DNA of 64,000 nt, from contig JACRHL010000011.1 of assembly GCA_016212085.1 (NCBI GenBank), positions 64,161-128,160 of the forward strand, read 5' to 3'. The stretch comes from Nitrospirota bacterium. GTDB lineage: Bacteria; Nitrospirota; JACRHL01. The position numbers were made by a program, and so were the translations under genes. Below the pieces are notes generated by a model. The model was given only the letters and a program-made list of their open reading frames with translations. It ran no database searches and was not told the origin of the DNA. Each line of letters opens with the position of its first letter. The stretch's first letter is position 1. Positions 16,028 to 63,715 of this stretch are shown here, piece by piece.

Positions 16028-16041
16028 AGCCGGCGGCCGGC

Positions 16042-16350
16042 TTACACCTCGATTTCAATTTCCTCCCCGGTGACGCGGACGTTGTAGCGCGTCACGTCCT
16101 CCCCCGCCGGCGGCATGGTGACCTCCCCGGAGGCGATGGTGAAATGGGCGCCGTGCCAGGGACACACCACCTCGTCCCCCTGGATGAGCCCCTCGGACAG
16201 CGGCCCCCCCATGTGGGTGCAGGCGTCGTCGATGGCGAAGAACGTGCCACCCAGGTTGAACAGCGCGATGCGCCTGGCCCCCACCCGCACGCATTTCGCG
16301 CCCTGGTCGGGTATTTCCATCTTCTTGGCGATGGCGATGAATTGCGACAT
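16042..16350 (-). CDS. Small Rieske [2Fe-2S] ferredoxin-like protein
   Basis: 103 aa from MSQFIAIAKKMEIP. The Rieske ligands are CTHMGGPLSEG and CPWHGAHF. A GGAGG RBS lies before the ATG. Confidence 0.8.
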   Translation of the reverse strand: MSQFIAIAKKMEIPDQGAKCVRVGARRIALFNLGGTFFAIDDACTHMGGPLSEGLIQGDEVVCPWHGAHFTIASGEVTMPPAGEDVTRYNVRVTGEEIEIEV

Positions 16351-16485
16351 GGCGATAGCCTCCTTGCGCCATGGCAGCCGCGCCCTCCCGTCGGGATGCC
16401 GTCCTGATTTGACTATATGCCCCCCACCGGCGCTGCGCCAGGAAGGGGGGGGCACATGGGCGGGCAACCGCCCCCGGCCGCGCCG

Positions 16486-17439
16486 TCACGCGGCCGGGGG
16501 CGCCGCGTCGGCCGTCCCGAGGTGTGCTTCCAGCCGCCGGAGCCCTTCGAGATGGGCCTGTTCGGTGCGGGAGAGCTCCTCGCAGAACGCCCGCATCAGC
16601 GGATCGTCCGCCTCCTGCGCCAGCTCCCGGTAATTGTCCCGCGCCTCCGCCTCGCGGCGCTTGGCCAGCTTCAACACGGCCCTGGGGTCCCCCTCGCGCA
16701 CGGTTTTTTCGTCCTGCGGCGCCAGGGTGCCGGAGATCTGTTTCTCCCACTTGCTCACGTAAGCGAACGGGTCGAAATCCAGGTTGAGCGGCGGCCTGGA
16801 GGCGCGCTCGGCGAGTTCGCGTGCGTGGCCCACCTCCAGCGCGGCCAGGTCCAGGAACAGGGCGCGGGAGTCGTCCCGGTTCGTCAGATCGGCGGCCAGG
16901 CGGTAGAAGGCCCGCGACTTGATTTCGCTCAGCAGTGCGCTCTTGATGGTTTTGGCGGGGGTGAGCGCGGAGGTCTCGGTGCTGTTCTCGGCGTGGGCGC
17001 TGAGCCGCTGGAAGGCGCCCAGGCACACCACGCCCAGGCTGGCGACGGCGAGCAGCAGCGTGGGGTAGATGATCTGCGCCATCTCCTGCGTGGCCGCGCT
17101 GAAGATGAACACCAGCGCCTCCAGGTAGGCGGCGATGGTCACGATCACCAGGAACTTGGTGAGGGTCTTGCGGGCCTCGGCGGAGGAGCGCAGTTCCCGG
17201 TTGCGCAAGACCTCCTCCTCGATCAGGTATTTGCTCACGTCGAACACCGCCACGGCGACGACGATGAGGCCGATGGCGTCCAGCATCCGGGGCACCGCCT
17301 CGGTGCTGGAGTGGAACGCCAGCCACACGTCCCAGCCGCCGGCGCCGATCATGGCAAGGCTGATCAGCAGCAGCGAGGTGCTCGCCGTGATGTACATGAT
17401 GTGGGTGACGAGGGTGTGTAGGCGGTTCTGGTTCCTCAT
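16486..17439 (-). CDS. Membrane-anchored ferritin-like diiron protein: an N-terminal 4-TM module fused to a ferritin-like domain
   Basis: 317 aa from MRNQNRLHTLVTHIMYITAST. The TM module (AVFDVSKYLIEEEVLRNRE...RKTLTKF...IAAYLEALVFIF) is homologous to the C-terminal module of the 9145-10173 protein. The C-terminal about 160 aa is a paralog of the ORF at 15493-15975. Confidence 0.65.
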   Translation of the reverse strand: MRNQNRLHTLVTHIMYITASTSLLLISLAMIGAGGWDVWLAFHSSTEAVPRMLDAIGLIVVAVAVFDVSKYLIEEEVLRNRELRSSAEARKTLTKFLVIVTIAAYLEALVFIFSAATQEMAQIIYPTLLLAVASLGVVCLGAFQRLSAHAENSTETSALTPAKTIKSALLSEIKSRAFYRLAADLTNRDDSRALFLDLAALEVGHARELAERASRPPLNLDFDPFAYVSKWEKQISGTLAPQDEKTVREGDPRAVLKLAKRREAEARDNYRELAQEADDPLMRAFCEELSRTEQAHLEGLRRLEAHLGTADAAPPAA

Positions 17440-17735
17440 CGCTCGATGTTTGTTGGGGGTGGGGGCATTCCGGCCGTCTCGCCAATCATGGCACCTGGCG
17501 GCCGCCTGCGAAAGGGCGGGGTAATACTCCCGTTGCAACCGCGGCGGGTGGCGCCCCGGTGTCGCGAAAACCCGGCCGATGTCATAATGAAAACATCGGG
17601 TTGGCTTCGCATCCGGAGAGGCAAAACGATTCCAGCCAACCCCCTGGAGGGTCGTCCGCCCCGGCCACCCCCGCTTCCAGCGGGCGGTTCGGAATGGACG
17701 GATTCCGCGCGGCGTAACGGTGCCGCTCCGCTCGG

Positions 17736-17805: not shown

Positions 17806-19215
17806 ATGAAACCCGCCGGAACCCGCACGGAACACGACGCCATGGGGCCGGTCGAGGTGCCGGAGGCGGCATACTGGGGGGCATCCACCCAGCGCGCGCT
17901 GGCCAACTTTCCCATCAGCGGCAAAACGTTCCCGCGGCCGTTCATCGCGGCGCTGGGGCTGATCAAGGCCGCCGCCGCCCAGGCCAACCATGAGCTGGGC
18001 CTGCTGCCGCCGGAGCTGGCCTTGGCGATAGCCAAGGCCGCGTGGGAGGTGGCGGATGGCCGCTGGGACGACCAGTTTCCGGTGGACGTGTTCCAGACCG
18101 GCTCCGGTACCTCCACCCACATGAACGCCAACGAGGTGATCGCCAACCGGGCGGCGGAGTTGCTGGGCGGCCGCCGCGGCGACCGGGTTGTGCACCCCAA
18201 CGACCACGTGAATCTGGGGCAGTCGTCCAACGACGTGATCCCGACCACCGTGCACCTGGCGGCGCTGCTGACCCTGCGCGACCGCTTGCTGCCGGCGTTG
18301 ACGCGGCTGGAGACCGCCCTGAACCAGAAGGCCGATGCGTTCTGGCCGGTGGTGAAGACCGGCCGCACCCATTTACAGGACGCCATTCCGGTGCGCCTGG
18401 GCCAGGAGTTCGGCGGCTACGCGGCCCAGGTCGGGCAGGCCCGCGTCCGGCTGGACCAGGCCCGGCGCGAGCTGTCGGCGGTGGCCCTGGGGGGCACGGC
18501 GGTGGGGACCGGCTTCGGCGCGCACCGGCGCTTTGCGGAACGGGCCCTGTTTCACCTGTCGGAGGCGGCGGGGGTCGCCGTCCACGAAACCGGCAACCAC
18601 TTCGCGGCCCAGGCCTCCCTGGACGGGGTGGTGGCGGCCAGCGGCGCCGTGCGCGGCGCCGCCCTGGCGCTGGTCAAGGTGGCCGGCGACATCGCCCTGC
18701 TCGGTTCCGGGCCAAGGGCCGGATACGGCGAGATCACCCTGCCGGCGGTGCAGCCCGGCAGCTCCATGATGCCCGGCAAGGTCAATCCGGTGATCGCCGA
18801 GGCGCTCATCCAGGCGTGCGCCCAGGTGGTGGGCAACGATGCGGCGATCGCCTTCGCCGCCCAGCGCGGCGCGTTCGAGCTGAACACCATGTGGCCGGTG
18901 GCGGGCTGCAACCTGGTCGGTTCCATGGAGCTGCTGGCCGCCGCCGCCGGGGTGTTCTGCGAGCGCTGCGTGGTGGGGATCACCGCCACCGGGCGTGGCC
19001 CGGCGCTGGTGGCATCGGGCCTGGCCCTGGCCACGGCCCTGGTGCCGGCCATCGGCTACGACCGGGCCGCCGCCATCGCCCGGGAGGCGGCGGAGACGGG
19101 CCGCACCATCCCCGAGGTGGCGCGGGAACGCACGAACCTGTCCGACGCCGAACTGGCCCGGCTGCTGGACCCGGCATCCATGACCGGACCCGGCGACGGG
19201 ACGGAGGACACGTGA
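17806..19215 (+). CDS. fumC: Class II fumarate hydratase (fumarase C; fumarate lyase/aspartase family)
   Basis: 469 aa. N-terminus ...TEHDAMGPVEVPEAAYWGASTQRALANF. Carries the lyase signature GSSMMPGKVNP and the SSNDVIPT motif. Confidence 0.85.
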   Translation: MKPAGTRTEHDAMGPVEVPEAAYWGASTQRALANFPISGKTFPRPFIAALGLIKAAAAQANHELGLLPPELALAIAKAAWEVADGRWDDQFPVDVFQTGSGTSTHMNANEVIANRAAELLGGRRGDRVVHPNDHVNLGQSSNDVIPTTVHLAALLTLRDRLLPALTRLETALNQKADAFWPVVKTGRTHLQDAIPVRLGQEFGGYAAQVGQARVRLDQARRELSAVALGGTAVGTGFGAHRRFAERALFHLSEAAGVAVHETGNHFAAQASLDGVVAASGAVRGAALALVKVAGDIALLGSGPRAGYGEITLPAVQPGSSMMPGKVNPVIAEALIQACAQVVGNDAAIAFAAQRGAFELNTMWPVAGCNLVGSMELLAAAAGVFCERCVVGITATGRGPALVASGLALATALVPAIGYDRAAAIAREAAETGRTIPEVARERTNLSDAELARLLDPASMTGPGDGTEDT

Positions 19216-21257: not shown

Positions 21258-22796
21258 ATGCCTTTCTTGCGCCCGTCCGCCGCCCTGTCCCTCATCGCAG
21301 CTTGCCTGCTGCTGTTCATTGGCGGCACCTCCCACGCCCACACATTGCACGTCACCGACGACGCGTCGTCGGATCGGTCGGCGCATTCAAGACTGTCCGG
21401 CGACGGTGGCGACATGGTGTTGCGCGCCGCCGCCGTGCCTGATCGCGACGGGGAGGACCGCGACCGCCGTGGCCGGGACCATGGGGACGATGACGACCAC
21501 GACACCGCTGGCGCCGCGTTGGCGCTGGCCCGCTTTGACCTGTCGACGCTGGCCGCCGGCGCCGATATCGAGAAGGCCACGCTGCGCCTGTGGGTAACCC
21601 GGGTTGCCCACCCCGGCACCGTGCACGTGCGGCTGATGCTGGACGGGTGGTCGGAACGCGACCGCTACCTGCGGGCGGAAATGGACCCGGTGCCGGTGCG
21701 GTCGTTCGCCGTTTACGCGGATGACGGCGGGCGCACCCTGACCGTCGATATCACCGACGCCGTGCGTCTCTGGCGCGCGGGCGTCCTTCCCAACCACGGC
21801 CTGGCGCTGACCACGGATGATGCCAGCCTGTGGCTGGCCAGCAAGGAAAACACCGCCACCTCCCACGCCGCCGAGGTGGAGGTGGCGCTGGCGCCAACGC
21901 GGGCACTGGCGGATTCCGGCGGCTCACCCGGCTCCACCGGGCCGCAAGGCCCCACCGGTCCGCAAGGCCCGGCGGGCGTGCCGGGTGACCCCGGCCCCGC
22001 CGGCCCGCAAGGCCCCACCGGTCCGCAAGGCCTGGCGGGCGCGCCGGGTGACCCCGGTCCCGCCGGCCCGCAAGGCCTCACCGGTCCGCAAGGCCTGGCG
22101 GGCGCGCCGGGTGACCCCGGCACCGCCGGTCCGCAAGGTCCCGCCGGTCCGCAAGGCTTGGCGGGCGTGCAGGGCGACCCCGGCCCCGCCGGCCCGCAAG
22201 GCCCCGCCGGTCCGCAAGGCCTCACCGGTCCGCAAGGCCCGGCGGGCGCGCCGGGGGCGACAGGCCCGGTTGGGCCACAGGGGCTCACGGGGCCGCAGGG
22301 CCCTCCCGGCCCCGGCGGGTTGTCCGGCGTGGTGATCGGCCCGCACCTGGTCAGCGTCACGACGCCGGACGCGGTCACCCTGGACGTTGCCGGGATGCCG
22401 GGCGTGGCGTTCGGGGCCGCCTACCTGGCGAGCCCGTACATCCTCACCACCACGTGGCGCGACCCGCTCACCCTGGCCATGGACGTGCCGGCGGACGGGG
22501 TGATTCTGATCCAGTACACCCTGACCTGCGAGCTGGTGTCGGCGGGCGCGCCGGCCGCGCTGGCGAGCGGGTTTGTCAGCAACCTGCCGGTGCAGCTCAT
22601 CCCATCGGCGGACCCGGGCACGTTCCATTGCACCACCGGACCGTCGCCGCAGACGGACGTCATGCGCCAGAAGCTGTTCCCGGTGCAGAAGGGGGTGAAC
22701 AACTTCTACCTGCGCGCCGCCATGCAGACACCCACCGGCCTGGGCATGTTGCGCAACATCACCATGTCGGGCATGTATTTCCCGGCCACCTACTGA
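21258..22796 (+). CDS. Secreted collagen-like protein: signal peptide, an N-terminal beta-rich domain that may be DNRLRE/CBM96-like, about 45 Gly-X-Y triplets, and a C-terminal globular domain
   Basis: 512 aa. [29 protein letters not shown] looks like a signal peptide. [16 protein letters not shown] resembles a DNRLRE-like pattern. A long uninterrupted [19 protein letters not shown]... run follows. The roughly 150-aa C-terminal domain ends ...YFPATY. Confidence 0.75.
21918..22330 (+). repeat. Tandem 63-bp (21-codon) repeats encoding the collagen-like region (about 4.5 near-identical units, with 9-bp sub-periodicity)
   Basis: The unit ggccccaccggtccgcaaggcc(c/t)ggcgggcg(t/c)gccgggtgaccccgg(c/t)cccgccggcccgcaa recurs with only a few substitutions. 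Confidence 0.8.
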
Positions 22797-41587: not shown

Positions 41588-42625
41588 GTGGCGCAAGACG
41601 TGCCCTGGGCCCTGGTTCTCTCCGACGGCAAGCCGGGCCACGAAAACCAATCCATCGGCGTGCTGCCCAAGGGGCTGGCCCACCGGGTGTTCCCCGTGAC
41701 GTTCCACGGGCGCGGCGCGCGCCTGCGCGCCAGCCTGGCGGCGCGGCTGCGCTGGCGGGCCCTGGCGGGGCGCTTTCCGTGGCACGGGCTGATCGGGGAC
41801 GGCGCGGGGCTGATGGCGCTGGCGGCGGAACGGCCGTCGGTGGTGGTGTCCGCCGGCAGCGGCCCGGCGCCGATCAACCTGCTGCTGGCGCGCCACCTGC
41901 GCGTTCCCGCGGTCACCTGCATGACCCCGTCCGTGGGCCTGGGCGGGTTCGACCTGGCCCTGGTGCCGCGCCACGACCATCCCCCCGATCGCCCCAACGT
42001 GGTGGTCACCCTGGGCGCCCCCAACCGGGTGGACCCGGACACGCTGCGGGCGGAAGGGGAGGCCTTCCGCGCCCGCCACGGTCTGCCGCAAGGCAGGTAT
42101 GCCGTCCTGCTCATGGGGGGCGACTCGGCCCGCTTTCGCATCGGCGTGGCCCAGGGCCTGGCGGCGCTGGAGGGGTGCCTGGCGCTGGCGGCCCGGCACG
42201 GCATGGAACTGCTGGTGACCACCTCGCGCCGCACCGCGCCGGACACGGAGGCGGCCATGGCCGCCCTGGCGCACCGGTGTGCCTATTTCTGCGCGGGGCG
42301 CGATGACCCGGAGCGGGTGGTGCCGGGCATGCTGGCCCTGGCGGAGCTGGCGGTGGTGACGGAGGACAGCGTGTCCATGGTGTCCGAGGCGGCGTCGGCC
42401 CCGGCGCGGGTGCTGGCCCTGGGGGTGGAGCGGAAGGGCGGCGTGCCGCGCCGCCACGAGGCGGTGCTGGCGGCCCTGGCGGACGGCGGCTACGTGCGCC
42501 GCGCCACCACCACGGACCTGATCGCCGCGGGCTCGGCCCTGCTGGCCGCCGCCCCCCCGCCGCGGCTGGACGACACCGCCCGCTGCCGGGCCGCCGTGGC
42601 GCGCCTGATCGGGGTGGCCCCATGA
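41588..42625 (+). CDS. ELM1/DUF1022-family putative glycosyltransferase
   Basis: VLSDGKPGHENQSIGV is the ELM1-family N-terminal signature. Confidence 0.65.
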   Translation: MAQDVPWALVLSDGKPGHENQSIGVLPKGLAHRVFPVTFHGRGARLRASLAARLRWRALAGRFPWHGLIGDGAGLMALAAERPSVVVSAGSGPAPINLLLARHLRVPAVTCMTPSVGLGGFDLALVPRHDHPPDRPNVVVTLGAPNRVDPDTLRAEGEAFRARHGLPQGRYAVLLMGGDSARFRIGVAQGLAALEGCLALAARHGMELLVTTSRRTAPDTEAAMAALAHRCAYFCAGRDDPERVVPGMLALAELAVVTEDSVSMVSEAASAPARVLALGVERKGGVPRRHEAVLAALADGGYVRRATTTDLIAAGSALLAAAPPPRLDDTARCRAAVARLIGVAP

Positions 42626-49120: not shown

Positions 49121-52100
49121 ATGAAGTCCGTCCTGTTCTCGGTCAGGAACCCGGTCTTCGTCAACCTGCTGATGCTGTTGACGGTTGTCGCCGGCGCCTA
49201 TTTCTACACCACCATGACCCGGGAGGTGTTCCCGGAGATCCCCCTCGACATCGTCGCCGTCTCCACCACCTACACGGGGATCTCGCCGGACCAGATCGAG
49301 AAGGAGATCACCATCCCCATCGAGGACGCGGTGCACGCCATCACCGGCGTCGACGAGGTGAACTCCCGCTCCCTGGAGGGGGTCTCCATGATCGAGCTGG
49401 CCCTGGAGCAGGACGCCGACATGGCCAAGGTGGCCCAGGACGTGCGCGGCGAGATCGAGCGCCTGGTGGACCTGCCGGCGGACGCGGACGACCCGCAGGT
49501 GGTCGAGATCGAGAGCCAGTTCCCGGTGATCAACGTCACCGTGCACGGCAACGTGCCGGAGGAGAGCCTGCGCGTCGTCGCCAAGGCGCTCAAGGACGCC
49601 ATCGAGGCCATCCGCGGCGTGGCGGCGGTGACCATGACCGGCTACCGCGACCAGGAGGTGTCGGTCACCCTCGACCCCCGCCGCCTGGTGGCGCTGGGCG
49701 TGGGGGCGGCCGAGGTGGCGGACGCGGTGGCGGCCCGCAACGTGGACCTGCCCGCCGGCGTCATCCGTGGCGACAAGAGCGAGTTCCTGGTGCGCACCGC
49801 CGGCGAGTACGAAGACCCCACGCGCCTGGCCGACGTGGTGGTGCGAGCCCGCCCCGACGGCCGCCACGTGCACCTGCGCGACGTGGGCGAGGTGACCGTG
49901 GCCTACAAGGAGGAGGAGGCGTTCGGCAAGATCGACGGCGAGCGCGCCATCTCCCTGGAGGTGTCCAAGAAGCGCAAGGGCGACACCATCGCCATCGTCT
50001 CCGAGATCAACGGGCTGGTGGAGGAGGCACGGCGGGGGGCGCCGGAGGGGCTGACCCTCACCACCACGCGCGACGGCTCCGTGTGGATCGAGTCGCGCCT
50101 GGAGACGCTCTACGCCAATGGCGCCGTCGGCTTCGTGCTGGTGTGCCTCACCCTGTTCGCGCTGCTCGACTGGCGCATGGCGTTCTGGGCGGCGGTGGGC
50201 ATCCCCACCTCGTTCCTGATGGCGTTCGTGTTCATGCACATGGCGGGCATGAGCATCAACATGCTGTCCCTGTTCGCGCTGATCGTGGTGCTGGGGTTGA
50301 TCGTGGATGACGCCATCATCATCACCGAGAACGTGTACCGCTACCTGCTCAAGGGCTACACGCCGCGCATGGCGGCGGTGGTCGGCGCCGCCGAGGTGAT
50401 GATGCCGGTGCTGGCCGCCACCACCACCACCATGGCCGCCTTCCTGCCCATGATGCTGATGACCGGCATCATGGGCAAGTTCATGAAGGTGATTCCCATC
50501 GTGGTGGTGTTCTGCCTGATCGCCACCATGATCGAGTCGCTGGTCATGCTGCCCAGCCACCTGGCGGAGTTCGGAAAGGGCCTCACGGCCGGCGTGCGCC
50601 GCGAGGGGCACCTGTTTCTCAAGCTGCGCCGGCGCTACGTGCACCTCATTTTCACCGTCCTGCGCCACCGTTACCTGACCGTGGCGCTGCTGGTGCTGGC
50701 GGCGGTGTTGAGCGTGGTGGTGATGCGCTATCACATGCAATTCGTGATGTTCAACACCAAGGACCTGCCGGGCTTCGCGGTGCTGGTGGAGACCCCGGAG
50801 GGCACCAGCCTCAAGGAGACCGAGCGGGTGCTGGCCCAGGTGGAGCGGGTGGGGGCCGGGCTGCCGGACACGGACCTGAACGCCATGGTGTCGCTGGTGG
50901 GCAGCCACTTCGACATCTCCACCGGCCGCAGCACCAACGGCAGCAACCTGGGGATGATCTACTTCGAGCTGGCGCACTTCGACGACCCCTTGCGCCGCAA
51001 CGGCTACGAGGTGCTGAACGACTTCCGCGCGCGCCTCACCGGCATCACCGGCTACGAGTCGCTGCGCGTCATCGAGACCCAGGGCGGTCCGCCCGTGGGC
51101 CGCGCGGTGGAGGTGAAGGTGCGTGGCGACGACGTGGCCGTGCTGCGCCGCATCGCCGGCGAGGTGGAGGCCTATCTGGGCACCGTTGCCGGCGTGTACG
51201 ACATCGCCAACGACGACGTGCTGGGCAAGCAGGAGCTGGCCGTGCGCGTGGACGAGGACCGTGCCGCCCTGTACGGCCTGAACGCCGGCGCCATCGCGCG
51301 GGTGGTGCGCATCGCCTTCGAGGGGGTGGAGGTGTCGGAGGTGCGCCGCGGCAACGATACCCTGGACGTGATCGTGCGCTACCAGGAACGCTACGCGGAG
51401 CGCCCGCAGGAGGTGCGCCAGTTGCGCGTGCTGTCGCCCAGCGCCGGCTGGGTGCCGTTGACCAGCGTGGCCGAGGTGCGCCTGGAGCAGGGCCCGGCCG
51501 CCGTGGTGCGCAAGGACCGCAAGCGCACCATCCTGGTGTCGTCGGCGGTGGACAAGGCGACCGTCACCTCCACCCAGGCCAACGCGCTGGTCAAGGCGCG
51601 CTTCGCCGACGTGCCGGCGCGCTACCCCGGCTACGAGCTGGTGTACGGCGGCGAGAACGAACAGCAGCTCGAATCGCTGGCCTCCCTGGCCCGCGCCAGC
51701 GCCCTGGCCGTGCTGCTCATCTACCTGATCCTGGGCACCCTGTTCCGCTCGTTCATCCAGCCCGTGGTCATCATGTCCACGGTGCCGTTCGCGTTCATCG
51801 GCGTGGTGGTGGGGCACCTAGTGATGATGCAGCCGCTGGGGCTGCTGTCGCTCATCGGCCTGGCCGGCCTGGTGGGGGTGGTGGTGAACGACTCGCTGGT
51901 GCTGGTGGCCTTCGTCAACGACTCCCGGCGCCGCGGCGCGTCGCGCTGGCTGAGCGTGGCCCGGGCGGCCAGGCACCGCCTGCGGCCCATCCTGCTCACC
52001 TCCATCACCACCATCCTGGGGCTGCTGCCCTTGTCGTTCCAGACCCGGGGCCAGGCGGCGTACCTGGCGCCCATGGCCATCTCCATCGTATGGGGCCTGC

Positions 52101-52252
52101 TGTTCGCCACCGTGCTCACCCTGGTGATGGTGCCGTGCGTCATGGGCATGCTGGACGACATCGGCAAAAAACTGGGCCTGAAAATCGGTCCGGCCGCCGA
52201 GGGCGAGACCCTGGAGCAGGAGTTGGCCCGTGCCGGGTATGACGCCCGTTAA
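49121..52252 (+). CDS. Efflux RND transporter permease (AcrB/CzcA superfamily)
   Basis: 1043 aa with the 12-TM RND architecture and two large periplasmic loops. Confidence 0.9.
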   Translation: MKSVLFSVRNPVFVNLLMLLTVVAGAYFYTTMTREVFPEIPLDIVAVSTTYTGISPDQIEKEITIPIEDAVHAITGVDEVNSRSLEGVSMIELALEQDADMAKVAQDVRGEIERLVDLPADADDPQVVEIESQFPVINVTVHGNVPEESLRVVAKALKDAIEAIRGVAAVTMTGYRDQEVSVTLDPRRLVALGVGAAEVADAVAARNVDLPAGVIRGDKSEFLVRTAGEYEDPTRLADVVVRARPDGRHVHLRDVGEVTVAYKEEEAFGKIDGERAISLEVSKKRKGDTIAIVSEINGLVEEARRGAPEGLTLTTTRDGSVWIESRLETLYANGAVGFVLVCLTLFALLDWRMAFWAAVGIPTSFLMAFVFMHMAGMSINMLSLFALIVVLGLIVDDAIIITENVYRYLLKGYTPRMAAVVGAAEVMMPVLAATTTTMAAFLPMMLMTGIMGKFMKVIPIVVVFCLIATMIESLVMLPSHLAEFGKGLTAGVRREGHLFLKLRRRYVHLIFTVLRHRYLTVALLVLAAVLSVVVMRYHMQFVMFNTKDLPGFAVLVETPEGTSLKETERVLAQVERVGAGLPDTDLNAMVSLVGSHFDISTGRSTNGSNLGMIYFELAHFDDPLRRNGYEVLNDFRARLTGITGYESLRVIETQGGPPVGRAVEVKVRGDDVAVLRRIAGEVEAYLGTVAGVYDIANDDVLGKQELAVRVDEDRAALYGLNAGAIARVVRIAFEGVEVSEVRRGNDTLDVIVRYQERYAERPQEVRQLRVLSPSAGWVPLTSVAEVRLEQGPAAVVRKDRKRTILVSSAVDKATVTSTQANALVKARFADVPARYPGYELVYGGENEQQLESLASLARASALAVLLIYLILGTLFRSFIQPVVIMSTVPFAFIGVVVGHLVMMQPLGLLSLIGLAGLVGVVVNDSLVLVAFVNDSRRRGASRWLSVARAARHRLRPILLTSITTILGLLPLSFQTRGQAAYLAPMAISIVWGLLFATVLTLVMVPCVMGMLDDIGKKLGLKIGPAAEGETLEQELARAGYDAR

Positions 52253-52258
52253 AAGCGG

Positions 52259-52287
52259 TTGACCAGGGGTTTCCACCCATTTAAAAT
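52259..52287 (+). promoter_or_regulatory. sigma70-type promoter for ccsA-ccsB(-icd)
   Basis: TTGACC-N17-TAAAAT lies about 120 nt upstream of the ccsA GTG. An AAGGAGAG RBS sits at the start. Confidence 0.5.
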
Positions 52288-52406
52288 TGTGGGTCCAAGG
52301 AATTTCGGTGCACCACTGCGCGTGCCGTCGGAGACGTGCGAACCGGCGCGCTGGGCGGACGGGCGGGGTGCGGACAACACCGCTGCATCTGGGTAAGGAG
52401 AGAAGT

Positions 52407-53714
52407 GTGAATCTCTACGAGCACGAGGCCGTCGCCACAATCTACAGGAAGTATGGGATCTCCCATCCCCGGTTCGTGGTGGCCACCGAGCCCAACGAGG
52501 AAGTGGCCGCCTTCGTGCGCGAGAATGGCGGTGCCGTGGTCAAGGCCATGGTGCTGGTGGGCAAGCGCGGCAAGGCCGGCGCCGTGAAGCTGGTCAAGAC
52601 CGAGGCCGAGGCCGCCAAGGCCGTCACCGACATCATGAACATGCTGGTGTGGGGCGAGAAGCCGGTGGCGGTGATGGTCTGCGAGAAGGCCGACATCCAG
52701 GCCGAGATGTACTGCGCCGTGACCTACTCCACCGAGACCCGCAGCCCGGTGATCACCCTCTCCATGGACGGCGGCATGGACGTGGAGGCGATCGACCCCT
52801 CCCGCATCATCAATTTCCCGGTGGACGCCAGGCCCGAGGTGGAGCCCTACCAGATCCGCGACATGCTGGTGGCGATCGGCTTCACCCGGAAGTATGGCGA
52901 GATCCTGCGCCAGGCCTCGCTCACCATCGCGAGCGTGTACAAGGCCTTCTGGGGTTCCGAGGCGCGCCTGCTCGAGATCAACCCCCTGGCGGTGGTGAAG
53001 GTCGCCAGGAAGGACAGGAAGACCGGTGAGATGGTCGAGACCCTCGAGCTGCGCGCCCTGGACGCGGTGGTCACCCTGGACGACGACGCCACCGTGGCCC
53101 CGCAGAAGATCTACGGCGAGCGCTCCGCCTACACCCGCGAGTCGACCCGGCGCGAGGTGGACGCCCTGCTCATCGACCGCGACGACCACCGCGGCAAGGC
53201 CGGCTCCTACGTGGAGCCCGAGGACATGAGCGGCGACATCGCCATGATGACCTTTGGCGGCGGCGGCTCCGCCGTGACCATCGAAACCTGCTACGACGCC
53301 GGCCTGCGCCCCGCCAACTTCACCGACATCGGCGGCAACCCGCCGGCGGAGAAGATGTACAAGATCTCCCGCATCATCCTCTCCAAGCCGGGCATCAAGG
53401 GGGTGCTGGTGTGTGGCGGCACCGCCTCCAACACCCGCATCGACGTGACCCTGGGCGAGGGCCTGGTGAACGCCATCGACGACCTGGCCAGGGAGGGCAA
53501 GCTCGACCGCGACCTGATCTGGGTGGTGCGCCGCGGCGGCCCCGAGGTGGAGAAGGGCCTGCGCCTGCTGGCCGAGTGCTTCCAGCGCAACGGCATCAAG
53601 GGCCGCATCTTCGATTCGGAGCTGCCCATCACCCAGGCGCCGCTGATCCTGCGCGACCTGCTGGTGGAGCACCGCGGCTATGTGTGTGGCGACACGGCCC
53701 AGGCCAGCGTCTGA
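52407..53714 (+). CDS. ccsA: Citryl-CoA synthetase large subunit (SucC/AclB-like ATP-grasp subunit), GTG start
   Basis: 435 aa, VNLYEHEAVATIYRKYGISHP...VVKAMVLVGKRGKAGAVKLV, with the succinyl-CoA synthetase beta fold. The adjacent SucD-like gene and a separate citryl-CoA lyase gene support the call. Confidence 0.65.
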   Translation: MNLYEHEAVATIYRKYGISHPRFVVATEPNEEVAAFVRENGGAVVKAMVLVGKRGKAGAVKLVKTEAEAAKAVTDIMNMLVWGEKPVAVMVCEKADIQAEMYCAVTYSTETRSPVITLSMDGGMDVEAIDPSRIINFPVDARPEVEPYQIRDMLVAIGFTRKYGEILRQASLTIASVYKAFWGSEARLLEINPLAVVKVARKDRKTGEMVETLELRALDAVVTLDDDATVAPQKIYGERSAYTRESTRREVDALLIDRDDHRGKAGSYVEPEDMSGDIAMMTFGGGGSAVTIETCYDAGLRPANFTDIGGNPPAEKMYKISRIILSKPGIKGVLVCGGTASNTRIDVTLGEGLVNAIDDLAREGKLDRDLIWVVRRGGPEVEKGLRLLAECFQRNGIKGRIFDSELPITQAPLILRDLLVEHRGYVCGDTAQASV

Positions 53715-53766
53715 CCCGGCAACGATTTCAACGACTGCTAGATATAGCGGACCGGAAGGAGAGCAA

Positions 53767-54732
53767 ATGGGACCTTCACTGCTGAATGAGAACACCCGCA
53801 TCATCGTGATCGGCGCCACCGGCCGCGAGGCCTCCCAGGTGGTGCGCGAGTCCGAGGACCTGTTCCCGGGCAGGATCGCGGCGGGCGTGACGCCGGGCAA
53901 GGGCGGCACCACCATCGAGCCCAACGTGCCTATCTTCAACACCATCAAGGAGGCCAAGGCCCAGGACCCCCGCATCAACCTGGCCCTGATCTACGTGCCC
54001 CCGTCATCGGTCAAGGACGCGGTGCTGGAGGCCATCGGCAACGGCCTGAAGACCGTGTTCGTCATCACCGAGCACACCCCCATCCGCGACGCGGCGGAGA
54101 TCTACCTGGCCGCCAAGAACGCCGGGGTGCGCGTGGTGGGCGGCACCAGCCTGGGCTGTTTCGTGCCGAACGTGGGCCGCATCGGCGCCATCGGCGGCAA
54201 GGACCCGTCGGGCGCCCTGGCCGCCGGCGGCGTGGTGGTGATCTCCAAGAGCGGCGGCCTCACCGTCACCACCGCCGAGATGCTCAAGCGCCGCGGCCAC
54301 GGGGTCTACTTCGCCGTGGGCATCGGCGGCGACATGATCGCCGGCACCACCTATGCGGACCTGATGGACGAGTTGCAGGCCGACCCCCACGTCACCGCCC
54401 TGTGCATGCTGGGCGAGGTGGGCGGCGCCTACGAGGAGCAGGCCGCCGAGGCGGTGGCCGCGGGCCGGTTCACCAAGCCGCTGGCGGCGTTCATCGGCGG
54501 CGAGTTCCAGGAGAACCAGGAGGGCGTGTCGTTCGGCCACGCCGGCGCCGTGGTGGAGCGTGGCAAGGGCAAGGCATCGGACAAGAAGACGGCCCTGGCC
54601 GCGGCCGGCCGCAACGTGCGGGTGGCCCGGTACTACCACAACCTGGTGGACTGCATCGAGGAGCTGGGGGTGAAGCCCAACCTGCCGGACGCGACCGGCC
54701 GGGTGGTGCAGCCCAAGTACGCGACGATCTAG
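53767..54732 (+). CDS. ccsB: Citryl-CoA synthetase small subunit (SucD-like CoA-binding/His-phosphorylation subunit)
   Basis: 321 aa, ...RIIVIGATGREA...GVTPGKGGTT...SKSGGLT...GHAGAVV. Confidence 0.65.
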   Translation: MGPSLLNENTRIIVIGATGREASQVVRESEDLFPGRIAAGVTPGKGGTTIEPNVPIFNTIKEAKAQDPRINLALIYVPPSSVKDAVLEAIGNGLKTVFVITEHTPIRDAAEIYLAAKNAGVRVVGGTSLGCFVPNVGRIGAIGGKDPSGALAAGGVVVISKSGGLTVTTAEMLKRRGHGVYFAVGIGGDMIAGTTYADLMDELQADPHVTALCMLGEVGGAYEEQAAEAVAAGRFTKPLAAFIGGEFQENQEGVSFGHAGAVVERGKGKASDKKTALAAAGRNVRVARYYHNLVDCIEELGVKPNLPDATGRVVQPKYATI

Positions 54733-54796
54733 GCGGATTCGACGGACAGGGGGCGGGGCCGGCATGGCGCCGGGCCCCGTCCGGAGCACGCGTTGA

Positions 54797-57103
<2,307 letters not shown>

Positions 57104-57109
57104 CAGGAT

Positions 57110-57141
57110 GTTGAAAAAGTCCATACGTGGCCTTTTTCAAC
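57110..57141 (+). other. AT-rich perfect 10-bp hairpin immediately after the icd stop
   Basis: GTTGAAAAAG-N12-CTTTTTCAAC. Confidence 0.4.
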
Positions 57142-57326
57142 CCGGAACCGGAACAACGTGGTTTTCCGGTTTCTGCGGATTCCAGGCGTTTACGCGCCGG
57201 ATGCAGGCGTGCCGAAACGCTCCGTTTTTCAGCAGCCTGCCAGGGCTGAACCGTGCGGCCCGGCTGGGTGCATTGATGACGTTCAGGGAGGGGGCCTCTC
57301 GGAACCCCGTGGGTTGATTCACCGGC

Positions 57327-57359
57327 AAAAAGGGGTGGCCAGCGGGCCGCCCCTTTTTG
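57327..57359 (+). terminator. Rho-independent terminator between icd and ccl
   Basis: GGGGTGGCC-agcg-GGCCGCCCC followed by TTTTT. Confidence 0.7.
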
Positions 57360-57383
57360 CGGGCGGGTGGCCGGGCCACCCGC
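57360..57383 (+). other. Second perfect hairpin abutting the ccl RBS
   Basis: GCGGGTGGC-CGG-GCCACCCGC lies about 10 nt before the RBS GGAGGAG. Confidence 0.4.
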
Positions 57384-57399
57384 ATCACTGGAGGAGAAC

Positions 57400-58200
57400 A
57401 TGTCCGACGTGCTTTGGAAGACGTCTGTCGCGGGCCAGATCGACGGCAAGACGGTGATCCGGGGATACCCGCTTTACGATCTGATCGGGAACATCACCTT
57501 CCCGGAGGCCATCTACCTGGCGCTCAAGGGCGAACTGCCATCGCAGCCGGAGGCCAGGATGATGAACGCCATGCTGACCGCGTGCATCGACCACGGCATC
57601 GCCCCGCCCTCGGTGGTGGCGGCGCGCACCGTGTTCTCCGGCGGCAACTCGCTCAACTCCGCCGTGGCGGCGGGCGCCCTCACCCTGGGTGACTTCCACG
57701 GCGGCGCCATCGAGCAGTGCATGAAGCTGTTCGAGGATCTGGTGGGAGACAGCACCAGCGACGTGACGCGCCTGGCCAAGGACCAAGTGGCCGCCATGCG
57801 CGCCGCCAAGCTCCGCTTTCCCGGCTTCGGCCACAAGCTGTACAAGCGCGACCCGCGCACCGTGCGCATGCTGGAGCTGGCCAAGGAATACGGCTTCGGC
57901 GGGCGCTACATCGACTTTGCCGTGGCCGTGCAGAACGCGCTGGAGGAGTCCATGGGCCGCGACATGCCGCTCAACGTGGACGGCGCCATCGCCGCCATCC
58001 TGTGCGACATGGGCTTCGACTGGAAGGTGGGCAAGGGCTTCTTCATCATCGCCCGCATCCCCGGCGTGGTGGCCCACATCGTCGAGGAGTGGTCGCGCGA
58101 GAAGCCGTTCCGCCGCCTTCCGGAAGGCTCGTACGAGTACGACGGCCCCGCCCTGCGCGCGGTCCCCGGCACCGTCGTGTCCGACGTTGCGTCGTCCTAA
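57400..58200 (+). CDS. ccl: Citryl-CoA lyase (small citrate-synthase-fold protein)
   Basis: 266 aa from MSDVLWKTSVAGQIDGKTVIRGYPLYDLIG with a citrate synthase-like C-terminal domain (...HGGA...GFGHKLYK.DPR). A GGAGGAG RBS precedes the start. Confidence 0.7.
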   Translation: MSDVLWKTSVAGQIDGKTVIRGYPLYDLIGNITFPEAIYLALKGELPSQPEARMMNAMLTACIDHGIAPPSVVAARTVFSGGNSLNSAVAAGALTLGDFHGGAIEQCMKLFEDLVGDSTSDVTRLAKDQVAAMRAAKLRFPGFGHKLYKRDPRTVRMLELAKEYGFGGRYIDFAVAVQNALEESMGRDMPLNVDGAIAAILCDMGFDWKVGKGFFIIARIPGVVAHIVEEWSREKPFRRLPEGSYEYDGPALRAVPGTVVSDVASS

Positions 58201-58228
58201 CAGTTAACACCCGGATCGGGAAACGACC

Positions 58229-60505
58229 ATGCTCATCGATATCAACGACGTGAAGCAGCTCTACGCGCGGCTCGACGCCGTGCACGCGGCGGCGCGCAAG
58301 CGCCTGGGCCGCCCCCTCACCATGGCCGAGAAGGTGCTGTTCTCGCACATGGACAACTTCGAGACCGGCCCCATCCAGCGCGGCAAGGACGACGTGTGGC
58401 TGCGCCCGGACCGGGTGGCCATGCAGGACGCCACGGCGCAGATGGCCATCCTCCAGTTCATGACCGCAGGGATGCCCAGGACCGCCGTGCCCAGCACCGT
58501 GCACTGCGACCACCTGATCACCGCCTACAAGGGCTCGGCCCAGGACCTGCTGGTGGCGGAGGACACCAACAAGGAGGTGTACGACTTCCTGCACGCCGCC
58601 TCCCAACGCTACGGCATGGGCTTCTGGAAGCCGGGCAGCGGCATCATCCACCAGGTGGTGCTGGAGAACTACGCCGTGCCGGGCATGATGATGATCGGCA
58701 CCGACTCGCACACCCCCAACGCCGGCGGCATGGGCATGATCGCCATCGGCGTGGGGGGCGCCGACGCGGTGGACGTGATGACCGGCCAGCCGTTCCTGAC
58801 CCGCATGCCCAAGCTGGTGGGCATCAAGCTCACCGGCAAGCTGTCGGGCTGGACCTCCCCCAAGGACGTGATCCTCAAGGTGGCCCAGATCATGACCGTG
58901 AAGGGCGGCACCGGCAAGATCGTCGAATACTTCGGCCCCGGCGCGGCGTCCATCTCCGCCTCGGGCAAGGGCACCATCACCAACATGGGCGCCGAGATCG
59001 GCGCCACCACCTCCATGTTCGGCTACGACGCCGCCATGGGCCGCTATCTGCGCGCCACCGAGCGCGCCGCCGTGGCGGACCTGGCGGACCGGTACGCCCG
59101 TTACCTCACCTCCGACCCGGAGGTGGAGGCCAACCCCGGCGCCTTCTACGACGAGCTTCACGAGATCAACCTGTCGGAGCTGGAGCCCCACGTGGTGGGC
59201 CCGCACACCCCGGACCTGGCCCGCCCCATCTCCGCCCTGGCGGCGGAAACGGACCGGGAGGGCTACCCGGAGCGGCTCACCGCCGCCCTGATCGGCTCCT
59301 GCACCAACTCCTCCTACGAGGACATGACCCGCGCGGCCAGCATCGCCAAGCAGGCGGCGGCCCACGGCATCAAGGCCAAGAGCAGCTTCATGATCAGCCC
59401 CGGTTCGGAGCGGGTGCACGAGACCATCATCCGCGACGGCATCATGGAGACCTTCAACAGCGTGGGCGGCATCGTGCTGTCCAACTCCTGCGGCCCGTGC
59501 ATCGGCCAGTGGAAGCGGGACGACGTCAAGAAGGGCGACGCCAACAGCATCATCACGTCGTTCAACCGCAACTTCAAGGCGCGCAACGACTCGAACCCCG
59601 AGACCCGCGGCTTCATCGCCAGCCCGGAGATCGTGGTGGCCATGGGCCTGGCCGGCTCCCTCAAGTTCAACCCGCTCACCGACACCCTCAAGGGGGCCGA
59701 CGGCGCCGAGTTCAAGCTCCGCCCGCCGGTGGGCGAGGAGCTGCCGTCCGGCGGCTTCATCAGCAAGGACGCGGGCTACGTGGCGCCGGTGGACGACGCC
59801 CCGGCGGTGCAGGTGTCGCCCAGCAGCGACCGCCTGGCGCTGCTGGAGCCGTTCCCCAAGCTGGACCCGGTGGCCGATTACAAGGACATGCCGGTGCTGG
59901 TGAAGGCCCTGGGCAAGTGCACCACCGACCACGTGTCCCCCGCCGGCCCGTGGCTGAAGTACCGGGGCCACCTGGACAACATCAGCAACAACATGTACAT
60001 CGGCGCCGTGAACGCCTTCACGCAGGAGGCGGGCAAGGGCGGCAACGTGCTCACCGGCCAGACCGGCCAGGACTACAACCAGGTGGCCCGCGACTACAAG
60101 GCCAGGGGCATCGGCTGGGTGGTCATCGCCGACGAGAACTACGGCGAGGGTTCGTCCCGCGAGCACGCCGCCATGGAGCCGCGCCACCTGAACGGCCGCG
60201 CCGTCATCGCCCGCAGCTTCGCCCGCATCGCCGAGGCGAACCTGAAGAAGCAGGGCATCCTGCCCCTGTGGTTCGCCAACGCGGCGGACTACGACAAGGT
60301 GCGCGAGGACGACCGCATCACCCTGGAAGGGCTGGCGGGCATCGCCCCCGACCAGCCGCTGACCATGGTGATCCGCCATGCGGACGGCCACACCGACCGG
60401 GTGGGCGTGACCCACACCCTGAACGACGAGCAGATCACCTGGTTCCGCGCGGGCTCCGCGCTGAACGCGATCCGCGAGGCGCAGGACAGGGCCGCCCGCG
60501 CCTGA
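58229..60505 (+). CDS. acn: Aconitate hydratase (about 760-aa mitochondrial-type aconitase)
   Basis: 758 aa containing ...VHCDHLI..., [22 protein letters not shown] and [11 protein letters not shown], the Fe-S ligand motifs of aconitase. Confidence 0.88.
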
Positions 60506-60506
60506 C

Positions 60507-60548
60507 GGATACCTCTAACCGTCGCGAGCGGCGTGAGTGCAAGGCCCC
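60507..60548. repeat. Copy C (reverse orientation) of the intergenic repeat motif, just downstream of acn
   Basis: The reverse-complement reads GGGGCCTTGCACTCACGCCGCTCGCGACGGTTAGAGGTATCC. Confidence 0.55.
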
Positions 60549-60583
60549 CTTCCCGCGGTCAAGGCGGGGAGGGGGTCTTTTGC
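60545..60583 (+). terminator. Probable rho-independent terminator after acn
   Basis: CCCCCTTCCCGC-ggtcaagg-GCGGGGAGGGGG followed by TCTTTTG. Confidence 0.55.
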
Positions 60584-60734
60584 GTTGGTTCGCCGGCGGA
60601 ATGCCCTTATGACGGCCGTCATAAGCGGCGGCGCCCGTGATTTTGGTAGAATGGCCGCACATCGCCCCATTCGCCACGGCCCGCGTTCCCCCAGGCCCCG
60701 ACCGGGGTGGGGCCGTTACATAGGTAGGCAGCCC

Positions 60735-61451
60735 ATGCTCAACACCAAAGAGATGATCCTGCTCGTCGCCGGCACCGCCGGTGGCGTGCTGAGCGGCATT
60801 CCGGTTCCCCAGTCCATCATCCAGGGTGCCAGCCTGGGCTTCCTGATCGCCCTGGGTATCATCCTTGGCCAGCGCGAGATCGACCGGCGCGGCCTCCACG
60901 GGCGCGGCGCCAAGGTGCGCGCCAAGTGGCTGACCCTCACCGGCGCCGCCTGGGGCGCGGTGATCGGGGCGCTCACCGCCGCAGGGCCGCTGGCCTTCGA
61001 GTACGGCGTGTACAGCCAGGCCTTCGGCTTCCACTACCCCCGCACCAACACCTTCGGGCAGACCATCCACGGCGTGCTGCCCGGCACCATCACGGGGATC
61101 TGCGTGGCGGTGGCCATGGGCCTCGCCTTCACCATGGTGAAGGAGGAGGAGAAGATGTGGTTCATGATCCCGTTCGCCATCCCCCTCGGCTGGTGGACCG
61201 GGGCCGAGTCGCTGGCGGTGGGCCAGTCGCTGGGGCACCTGAACTGGGACTACATGGGCCCCGCCCAGGTGCAGGGCATGCGCTTCGGCATCCCCTGGAT
61301 GGAGTGCATGATCATCTTCCGCTGGGCCTACCTGGCCGCCACCGGCGACCTGAGGCGCATGCGCGCCGCCATCAAGGCCGCGGACGACGCCAAGTGGGCG
61401 GCCGCCGAGTCCGCCCCGGCCGCCCAGGCCGGATCGTCCCGGTCTTCGTGA
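60735..61451 (+). CDS. Hypothetical integral membrane protein
   Basis: 238 aa from MLNTKEMILLVAGTAGGVL with about 5 hydrophobic segments and GC-rich third positions. Confidence 0.55.
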   Translation: MLNTKEMILLVAGTAGGVLSGIPVPQSIIQGASLGFLIALGIILGQREIDRRGLHGRGAKVRAKWLTLTGAAWGAVIGALTAAGPLAFEYGVYSQAFGFHYPRTNTFGQTIHGVLPGTITGICVAVAMGLAFTMVKEEEKMWFMIPFAIPLGWWTGAESLAVGQSLGHLNWDYMGPAQVQGMRFGIPWMECMIIFRWAYLAATGDLRRMRAAIKAADDAKWAAAESAPAAQAGSSRSS

Positions 61452-62170: not shown

Positions 62171-62212
62171 GGCCCCTTCCCTTTGCGCCCGGCCGGTCCG
62201 GGTGTGGATCCC

Positions 62213-63715
62213 ATGAAGACCGAAATCGACGAGCTGCGGCGGTATTTGCAGACCATCACCGCCCTGGAGCAGGCGGCCTTCGTCCTCATGTGGGACCAGG
62301 CCACCTACATGCCGGCGGCGGGGGGGCACGCGCGCGGCGCGCAACTGGCAGCCATCAAGCAGGAGGCCCACCAGCGCGCCACGTCTCCGGCCCTGGGGCG
62401 GTTGCTCGACACGCTGGACGCCGCCCCCGGGCTGGACGCGGAGAACGCCGCCATGGTGCGCGTGGCCCGGCGCGACTACGAGATCCGCCGCCAAGTGCCC
62501 GCCGCCCTGGTGCGGCGCATCGCCCGCGCCCACGTGGCCAGCCACATGGCATGGGAGGCGGCGCGCGCCGCCAACGACTTCGCCGTGGCCACCAAGGCGC
62601 TGGAGAAGAACCTGGAACTGAGCCGGGCCTACGCCGCCTGCTTCCCCGGCGCCGCCCACGTGGCCGATCCGCTCATCGACATCTCCGATCCGGGCCAGAC
62701 GGTGGCCCAGGTGGGCCCCATGTTCGAGGGGCTGCGCAAGGAGCTGGTGCCCCTGGTGCGCGCCGTGCAGGCGGCGGACGCGCCGCGCGCGGTGCCGCGC
62801 GGCCGTTACCCGCAGGCGGACCAGATCGCCTTCAGCCGCCAGGTGGCCACGGCCATCGGTTACGACTTCGGGCGCGGCCGGCTGGATCTTTCGACCCACC
62901 CGTTCACCGTGGCCGTGTCCGCCGACGACGTGCGCATCACCACCCGCGTGCGCGAGGACGACTTTTCCGAATGCCTGTTCTCCACCGTGCACGAGGCCGG
63001 CCACGGCATCTATGAGCAGGGCATCGACCGGGCCTTTGCCGGCACGCCGGTGGCGGAGGGGGCGTCGGCGGGGCTGCACGAGTCCCAGTCGCGCCTGTGG
63101 GAGAACCTGGTGGCGCGCAGCCGCCCGTTCTGGGAGCATTTCTACCCGCGCTTGCAGGCCACGTTCCCGGAGCCCCTGGCGGGCCTGGAGCTGGACGGCT
63201 TCTTGCGGGCCATCAACCGGGTACGGCCGTCCCTCATCCGCACCGACGCGGACGAGGTGACCTACAACCTGCACGTGATGATGCGCTTCGACCTGGAGCT
63301 GGAGCTGTTGTCCGGCGCCCTGGCCGTGCGCGACCTGCCGGAAGCCTGGGTCGCTCGCATGGAGGCGGACCTGGGGGTGACACCACCGGACCACAACCTG
63401 GGGGCCTTGCAGGACCTGCACTGGTTCGACGGCCATGTGGGTGGCGCCTTCCAGGGCTACACCCTGGGCAACGTCTACAGCGCCCAACTGTTCGAGGCCG
63501 CCTGCCGCGCCCACCCGGACATCGTGCCCCACATGGCCCAGGGCCGGTTCGACACCCTGCGCGGCTGGCTGACGGCCAACGTCCACCGTTTCGGCCGGGC
63601 CAAGACCGCCGCCCAGGTCATCGCCGATGCCACCGGCGGCGCGCCGGACAGCGCCCCCTACGTGGCCTATCTGAAGCGCAAGTACGGCGCCATGTACGGC
63701 CTGCCGGTGGCGTGA
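62213..63715 (+). CDS. M32-family carboxypeptidase (Taq-type metallocarboxypeptidase)
   Basis: 500 aa with the HEAGH zinc motif (STVHEAGHGIYEQ) and the HESQSRLWEN motif. Confidence 0.8.
   Translation: MKTEIDELRRYLQTITALEQAAFVLMWDQATYMPAAGGHARGAQLAAIKQEAHQRATSPALGRLLDTLDAAPGLDAENAAMVRVARRDYEIRRQVPAALVRRIARAHVASHMAWEAARAANDFAVATKALEKNLELSRAYAACFPGAAHVADPLIDISDPGQTVAQVGPMFEGLRKELVPLVRAVQAADAPRAVPRGRYPQADQIAFSRQVATAIGYDFGRGRLDLSTHPFTVAVSADDVRITTRVREDDFSECLFSTVHEAGHGIYEQGIDRAFAGTPVAEGASAGLHESQSRLWENLVARSRPFWEHFYPRLQATFPEPLAGLELDGFLRAINRVRPSLIRTDADEVTYNLHVMMRFDLELELLSGALAVRDLPEAWVARMEADLGVTPPDHNLGALQDLHWFDGHVGGAFQGYTLGNVYSAQLFEAACRAHPDIVPHMAQGRFDTLRGWLTANVHRFGRAKTAAQVIADATGGAPDSAPYVAYLKRKYGAMYGLPVA

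Follow-up and report, generated by a model that had tools for sequence, protein, structure and literature searches.

Does the bacterium represented by contig JACRHL010000011.1, assigned to the Nitrospirota, cleave citrate with two separate enzymes? The question is raised by a 64,000-nucleotide stretch of that contig (the window), in which five genes on one strand, at 52407-60505 (+), follow each other in the order ccsA-ccsB-icd-ccl-acn (Table 1). Their products are deposited at NCBI as MBI5137023-MBI5137027; there the fourth is correctly named citryl-CoA lyase, and the first two carry the names succinate--CoA ligase subunit beta (MBI5137023) and succinyl-CoA synthetase subunit alpha (MBI5137024). 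The original prediction, made from the DNA alone, had instead described a two-subunit citryl-CoA synthetase (CCS) and a separate citryl-CoA lyase (CCL) of the type known from Hydrogenobacter. Our analyses favor the latter description and indicate that the cluster probably (at a likelihood that we place near 80%) encodes four successive citrate-arm steps of the two-enzyme variant ('rTCA2') of the reductive tricarboxylic acid (rTCA) cycle.

The five open reading frames (ORFs) have exactly the coordinates and sizes first given for them. The ccsA gene starts with GTG, six bases past AAGGAGAG, and has an AAGGAG ribosome-binding site, while ccl starts with ATG and has GGAGGAG ahead of it. The intergenic spacers measure, in order from ccsA to acn, 52, 124, 296 and 28 nt. 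The ccsA, ccsB and ccl genes lie together within 5.8 kb of one strand, with ccl 2.7 kb downstream of ccsB.

The NCBI names imply that the first two genes encode the succinyl-CoA synthetase (SCS) of the host, in which case the small citrate-synthase-like protein would be an unrelated acyl-CoA lyase. This reading draws on the absence of a second sucCD from the window and on the caution of a 2026 survey that ccl-like matches alone are prone to false positives. SucCD and CcsAB share ATP-grasp, CoA-binding and CoA-ligase folds as well as a phosphohistidine mechanism. However, when the proteins were compared to all Protein Data Bank (PDB) sequences, CcsA scored 507.5 bits against the large subunit of Hydrogenobacter thermophilus CCS (6hxq_B), but only 111 bits against the best SucC and 102 bits against Chlorobium AclB. 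Similarly, CcsB scored 388 bits against the CCS small subunit (6hxq_A), whereas the best SucD reached 195 bits and AclA 118 bits. Neither protein reached the threshold of the family whose name it bears: CcsA scored 177 bits with the SucC model NF001913 (cutoff 370) and CcsB 223 bits with the SucD model NF004230 (cutoff 336), both far below these NCBIfam cutoffs.

The domain content agrees with the scores. CcsA combines an ATP-grasp_2 domain (PF08442, residues 2-195) with a Citrate_bind domain (PF16114, residues 274-410) of the ATP-citrate lyase (ACL) type, so that, in contrast to SucC, its C-terminal half matches the citrate-binding domain of ACL. Alignments and motif searches located GGTASNT (residues 337-343) and RRGGP (residues 375-379) in CcsA; both motifs are common to AclB and absent from SucC. 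CcsB is composed of PF02629 and PF00549, with the phosphohistidine loop GHAGA at residues 257-261 (His258) and no citrate synthase domain.

The third protein, CCL, scored 259.8 bits against H. thermophilus CCL (6hxp), whereas the best citrate synthase gave 78 bits and the ACL lyase modules 62 bits, and it passed the citryl-CoA lyase family model NF004869 (314.7 bits, cutoff 212). That a protein with this resemblance to a characterized enzyme is encoded in the same cluster is a further point against the SCS assignment of its neighbors. Its match to the citrate synthase family PF00285 is limited to profile positions 162-355. It contains the motifs DHG (64-66), GFGH (142-145), DPR (151-153) and NVDG (192-195), of which DHG, GFGH and NVDG align with H. 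thermophilus CCL; from established knowledge of citrate synthase, we take the motifs to mark the catalytic His/His/Asp residues of that enzyme. Over the three proteins, the scores against solved CCS and CCL exceed those against SCS, ACL and citrate synthase two- to five-fold.

ACL, here represented by Chlorobium limicola AclAB (6HXJ), also cleaves citrate in an ATP- and CoA-dependent manner and is built from three modules that share ancestry with those of CCS and CCL; its citrate-binding domain and RRGGP motif are those noted above in CcsA. By contrast, the SucD-like subunit of ACL (AclA, 617 aa) carries the lyase module as a fusion, whereas the window CcsB, at 321 aa, is without this module and CCL is a separate protein. 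The ACL subunits show only low scores to the window proteins (AclB 102, AclA 118 and lyase module 62 bits) and AclB lies outside the CCS clade described below. A fused, or type-I, ACL was thus ruled out by subunit size and phylogeny.

To place CcsA among its relatives, we carried out an exhaustive HMMER search with the CCS large subunit over 1.84 billion representatives clustered at 50% identity. Only two representatives were CCS-like (1067 and 494 bits). The next match scored 239 bits, and the ten matches checked from that score downward were SucC-like but divergent, none of them reaching the SucC cutoffs. A neighbor-joining tree (Kimura-corrected distances, 200 bootstraps) was then calculated from the window CcsA, 15 CcsA proteins from fetched loci, H. 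thermophilus CCS, Chlorobium AclB, two solved SucC proteins, three SucC paralogs of Leptospirillum and ten of the 50%-identity representatives. All CCS large subunits, the window CcsA among them, formed one clade (200/200 bootstraps) that excluded AclB, SucC and the Leptospirillum SucC paralogs. Within it, the window CcsA and the CcsA proteins of five metagenome-assembled genomes (MAGs) formed a clade of their own (200/200), sister to the Leptospirillum type (194/200). One condition that would have refuted the original prediction was a grouping of the pair with true SCS subunits and of the small protein with other lyases; the outcome is instead in favor of CCS/CCL.

Moreover, Leptospirillum-type loci contain ccsAB together with a separate sucCD pair, the products of which share only 28% and 37% identity with the window CcsA and CcsB, respectively. 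Taken with the family cutoffs, the gaps in PDB scores, the domain content and the tree, these data exclude an ordinary SucCD as far as such comparisons reach, and we regard an SCS at this locus as highly improbable. The three proteins are predicted to be a Hydrogenobacter-type CcsAB and a stand-alone CCL, an assignment about as secure as sequence data can make it, which upholds the original prediction on this point. It also corrects the succinyl-CoA synthetase names, which conceal a diagnostic rTCA marker in this MAG.

One member of the window clade is unusual in length. Protein P0001, from a 29,136-bp ENA contig, is a CcsA of 602 aa in which two stretches match the query (82% identity). A partial duplication within the gene would account for this, as would an artefact of assembly or gene calling.

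The closest characterized system is that of H. thermophilus, whose CcsAB (6HXQ) and CCL (6HXP) are likewise three separate polypeptides of equal sizes and domain make-up. They show about 56-60% identity to the window proteins over their full lengths and share with them the phosphohistidine loop, the motifs for citrate binding and the catalytic motifs of the citrate synthase type. The window CcsA differs from its H. thermophilus counterpart by a 10-residue insertion at about residues 203-212. The gene arrangement is also different: Aquificaceae loci hold ccsA alone or with ccsB only, and ccl, icd and acn are not adjacent, unlike in the window. Finally, H. thermophilus is a thermophilic member of the Aquificota, while the host of the window belongs to a Nitrospirota lineage of ~70% GC.

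The nearest homologs of the window CcsA (77-87% identity) come from MAGs filed as Nitrospirota or Leptospirillia, followed at 53-60% identity by proteins of the Leptospirillum type and of Aquificaceae. Five related loci (L003, L004, L005, L006 and L039) represent five GTDB species representatives, one of them filed as Leptospirillia, a class that corresponds to Nitrospirota_A in GTDB (PMC11033732). All five keep the order RND-ccsA-ccsB-icd-ccl-acn, as far as the two shorter contigs reach, where RND denotes a resistance-nodulation-division pump gene. The synteny extends to the flanks, as a membrane fusion protein (MFP) gene lies upstream in three of the five loci, and orf238 and an M32 peptidase gene lie downstream in two.

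These relatives bear on the possibility that the cluster was recently transferred into an unrelated, high-GC, proteobacterium-like diazotroph, in which case the combination of CCS/CCL with such a host would be truly unusual. Composition provides some grounds for this idea, since the GC fraction of the 52-60 kb region is 0.677, compared to 0.70-0.74 in neighboring regions, and the AT skew changes sign there. However, in the window, which has a GC content of ~70%, genuine genes are marked by a GC fraction at third codon positions (GC3) of 0.85-0.98, and the five cluster genes, at 0.89-0.98, bear this coding signature and equal or exceed the rest of the window, indicating that their codon usage is native. 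The flanking MFP, RND pump, orf238 and M32 peptidase genes are syntenic in the related MAGs. The outer membrane protein BamA gave the same answer: the window BamA is 54-70% identical to clade BamA proteins, three of which share a contig with the ccs cluster, and about 40-45% identical to those of Manganitrophaceae, Nitrospiria and other Nitrospirae, which come next, and not those of Proteobacteria. On GC3, flank synteny and the relatives of BamA, recent horizontal acquisition was rejected, and we consider it scarcely credible. The cluster is native to this clade of the Nitrospirota lineage, within which it has been inherited. Locus GC varies in this clade, from 60-63% in the relatives to 68-70% in the window.

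The host is thus an uncultured, high-GC, diderm bacterium of the Nitrospirota lineage that has nif cofactor-biosynthesis genes and a CCS sister to that of Leptospirillum. The identification of the host removes the surprise voiced in the original prediction, which had thought it unusual to find CCS/CCL in a high-GC, nif-containing organism. Its relatives are Nitrospirota and Leptospirillia MAGs, and both the CCS/CCL system and nif are known in Leptospirillum, with nif genes described in groups I and III (PMC2607301), so that the combination is one to be expected. Further, recent surveys recognize the rTCA2 variant by ccsA, ccsB and ccl, and in the one of 2026 the three main phyla with this variant are Nitrospirota_A, Aquificota and SZUA-79.

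Departures from the Leptospirillum pattern are confined to the high GC content and the make-up of the cluster. Levican et al. (2008, PMC2607301) presented 'cluster 1' of L. ferriphilum, ccsA-ccsB-acnA-ccl-orf-frdAB-sucCD, as a locus of the rTCA cycle. The Leptospirillum-type loci that we fetched agree with it at both ends, reading ccsA-ccsB-acn-ccl, with the sucCD paralogs about 3 kb further on. The window shares with them the order ccsA-ccsB ... ccl, an aconitase gene inside the cluster, and CcsA, CcsB and CCL proteins that are 59-70% identical. In the window, though, a monomeric icd stands between ccsB and ccl, acn comes after ccl and encodes a mitochondrial-type aconitase, and neither frdAB nor sucCD occurs within about 10 kb downstream. 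GC content is about 70% in the window, compared to 49-57% in the Leptospirillum-type loci. The 2-oxoacid:ferredoxin oxidoreductases (OFORs) differ as well, with a two-subunit KorAB type in the window and separate forA, forB, forG and forE subunit genes in cluster 2 of L. ferriphilum (PMC2607301).

A fourth arrangement, a compact ccsA-ccsB-ccl, was present in two loci, L080 and L082, while the shorter contig of L081 shows ccsA-ccsB only. All three come from MAGs of roughly 40% GC filed as 'Deltaproteobacteria bacterium' or 'bacterium', and they may be the SZUA-79 carriers of the 2026 survey.

The two genes that set the window clade apart were assigned with ample scores. Icd scored 1252 bits with TIGR00178 (cutoff 950) and 1110 bits against the solved isocitrate dehydrogenase (IDH) 1itw; its gene is found at the same position in 5/5 related MAG loci and is absent from Leptospirillum-type loci. 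Acn scored 1085 bits with TIGR01340 (cutoff 825) and 984 bits against mitochondrial aconitase 5acn. It is 82-86% identical to its clade homologs, 71% to those of other Nitrospirota and 65-66% to those of Nitrospina/Nitrospinota, whereas the aconitase of the Leptospirillum cluster is of a different, shorter type with 34-35% identity. The window clade has thus re-tooled the cluster, which here includes a monomeric IDH together with an aconitase of the mitochondrial type.

What was observed is the identity of the genes, the families to which they belong, their synteny and their phylogeny; from this a path for the citrate arm can be drawn. The monomeric NADP-IDH would reductively carboxylate 2-oxoglutarate to isocitrate, which aconitase would convert to citrate. 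CcsAB would then form citryl-CoA from citrate, ATP and CoA by way of a phosphohistidine at His258 in the GHAGA loop of the small subunit, with citrate held by the ACL-like domain of the CcsA large subunit. In the last step, the stand-alone CCL would split citryl-CoA into acetyl-CoA and oxaloacetate. The 2-oxoglutarate could be supplied from succinyl-CoA and CO2 by the KorAB-type OFOR and the 7Fe ferredoxin encoded 37 kb upstream. The presence of the two-subunit korAB, previously noted in the window, was borne out by scores above cutoff with both TIGR03710 and TIGR02177, and the best solved match of KorA is 6n2n (311 bits). KorAB is a candidate 2-oxoglutarate synthase. The ferredoxin assignment was likewise supported by its Cys pattern, which we take to be of the Azotobacter FdI type, although its score with the FdxA model NF045490 (113.5 bits) is below the cutoff of 135. 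With CCS/CCL, a KorAB-type OFOR and a ferredoxin all present, an rTCA cycle is a reasonable reading of this one window. We infer the enzyme activities from family membership, and the reductive direction and autotrophy from the relatives, the nearby OFOR and the ferredoxin.

Several observations weigh against this reading. No gene for pyruvate:ferredoxin oxidoreductase, fumarate reductase, SucCD or malate dehydrogenase occurs in the 64 kb of the window or in the ~7 kb that follow downstream. KorAB counts as a candidate 2-oxoglutarate synthase only. The gene that had been called fumC does belong to the class II fumarase/aspartase family, but its assignment to fumarase or aspartase is ambiguous. 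The NCBIfam subfamily model for aspartate ammonia-lyase accepts it (529.7, cutoff 510) and fumC_II does not (510, cutoff 664), while among solved structures it scores a little higher with fumarases (438 bits) than with aspartases (390 bits). Lastly, CCS and CCL both operate near equilibrium (-5.9 and -2.1 kJ/mol, respectively; table in PMC13147460), and thus sequence cannot fix the direction of flux.

This near-equilibrium behavior leaves room for the same enzymes to work mainly in an oxidative or amphibolic direction. CCL would then condense acetyl-CoA with oxaloacetate, CCS would free citrate with the formation of ATP, in place of citrate synthase, and aconitase and IDH would lead on to 2-oxoglutarate, with no need for autotrophy. 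Monomeric NADP-IDH and mitochondrial-type aconitase are the types typical of the oxidative TCA cycles of aerobes, and the window shows no citrate synthase gene. In Desulfobacter, ATP-citrate lyase has been reported to work in the citrate-forming direction. On the other hand, the CCS/CCL systems studied so far, from Hydrogenobacter, Aquifex and Leptospirillum, all serve citrate cleavage in autotrophy. Among the closest outside relatives of the window aconitase are those in Nitrospina/Nitrospinota, which are rTCA autotrophs, and the OFOR and a ferredoxin of low-potential type are encoded nearby. We therefore view an oxidative or amphibolic role as unlikely and retain the reductive citrate arm as the preferred reading.

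With the window and its five relatives, the CCS/CCL variant of the rTCA cycle reaches past Leptospirillum into a sister clade that numbers at least six uncultured genomes of the Nitrospirota lineage; nif cofactor genes are present in at least the one that contains the window. This leaves unchanged where CCS/CCL is known to occur, namely in Aquificota, in the lineage of Leptospirillum and in a few other groups. A more tentative suggestion, to which we give somewhat less than even odds, is that these six represent an undescribed high-GC branch beside Leptospirillum that does not stem from acid mine drainage. Its members would be nitrogen-fixing rTCA2 autotrophs with a citrate arm rebuilt on monomeric NADP-IDH, a mitochondrial-type aconitase (a type also found in Nitrospina) and a two-subunit 2-oxoglutarate:ferredoxin oxidoreductase. 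Such a combination might reflect adaptation to habitats that are neutral and more oxic, for instance groundwater and estuarine sediment.

Two elements may shape transcription of the cluster. The sigma-70-like candidate just past the RND pump stop is the sole match of its kind in 52000-61000, and its TTGACC -35 box is found at the same place in 5/6 clade loci (window, L003, L004, L005 and L039) in a leader that is otherwise unconserved; by its sequence it may function as a promoter. The second element, in the icd-ccl spacer, has a folding energy of -35.9 kcal/mol (z = -4.8 relative to shuffles). A strong GC-rich hairpin is present in this spacer in 6/6 clade loci, with different sequences, and is followed by a T-run in 4/6, including the window. 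The spacer may thus hold an internal terminator or attenuator, and the cluster may be read as two units, ccsAB-icd and ccl-acn, or with attenuation between them.

Table 1 Features of the window, with positions counted from its first nucleotide.
Feature	Position	Strand	Details
ccsA, citryl-CoA synthetase large (beta) subunit	52407-53714	+	435 aa; ATP-grasp and citrate-binding domains
ccsB, citryl-CoA synthetase small (alpha) subunit	53767-54732	+	321 aa; CoA-binding domain and phosphohistidine loop
icd, monomeric NADP-isocitrate dehydrogenase	54857-57103	+	748 aa; TIGR00178
ccl, citryl-CoA lyase	57400-58200	+	266 aa; NF004869; stand-alone; fold of the citrate synthase C-terminal domain
acn, mitochondrial-type aconitase	58229-60505	+	758 aa; TIGR01340
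Sigma-70-like promoter candidate	52259-52287	+	TTGACC, 17 nt spacer, TAAAAT; about 120 nt upstream of ccsA, just past the RND pump stop
GC-rich hairpin, terminator- or attenuator-like	57322-57363	+	In the 296-nt icd-ccl spacer; A-run and T-run on either side
korB and korA, two-subunit 2-oxoacid:ferredoxin oxidoreductase	12060-14934	-	TIGR03710, 603 bits (cutoff 483); TIGR02177, 332 bits (cutoff 262)
fdxA, 7Fe ferredoxin	15154-15465	+	Divergent from korAB; CxxCxxxxCxxxCP ... CxxCxxCxxxCP
nif cofactor genes: nifS-like, iscA-like, nifB, NifW-like, nifN, nifE	1745-8722	-	Cofactor biosynthesis
Class II fumarase/aspartase-family gene ('fumC')	about 17806-19215		NCBIfam and PDB scores ambiguous
pyk, first 67 codons	63800-64000		Full gene on contig L083
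SagB-type dehydrogenase	10187-11887	-	566 aa; two SagB-type peptide-dehydrogenase (nitroreductase-like) stretches; directly downstream of korB
Ferritin-like ORF, Rieske-type [2Fe-2S] ferredoxin ORF and rubrerythrin-like ORF	15493-17538	-	Between fdxA and the fumarase-like gene
DNRLRE-domain ORF	21258-22796		Followed by collagen-like Gly-X-Y repeats, akin to Scl/Lcl adhesins
'Mitochondrial fission ELM1' match	41588-42625		PF06258, 192 bits; among glycosyltransferases in a lipopolysaccharide/polysaccharide region; also on contig L001

The remainder of the window agrees with the description of the host. The nif genes that had been noticed at its start are cofactor genes; nifB has a NifX-like C-terminus, the small gene that matches NifW falls just below its cutoff, and nifHDK are not in the 64-kb window. 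Past the fumC-like gene, the longest ORF of which has a 120-codon N-terminal extension that is probably untranslated, lie glycosyltransferase genes, fpg, the genes for BamA, Skp, LpxD, FabZ, MsbA, KdtA and LpxK, and an MFP-RND pump. The envelope genes in this list, from BamA to LpxK, confirm that the organism is Gram-negative, as had been proposed. Downstream of acn are orf238, a TPR protein gene, the M32 carboxypeptidase gene and the start of pyk. The latter gene had also been listed for the window, and it does begin there, but only its N-terminal 67 codons fall inside, which is why the PROSITE pyruvate kinase signature had no match in any of the six frames of the window. The ORF at 62183-63715, which was considered as pyk, is the M32 carboxypeptidase instead. 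Searches of the whole window with Rfam (gathering thresholds) and with a tRNA scan returned no match.

Some neighboring genes are of interest in their own right. Upstream of nifE, a gene on the opposite strand shows a weak match to a Cache domain. The ferritin-like, Rieske-type and rubrerythrin-like ORFs that adjoin the oxygen-sensitive OFOR and ferredoxin may protect them from oxidative stress.

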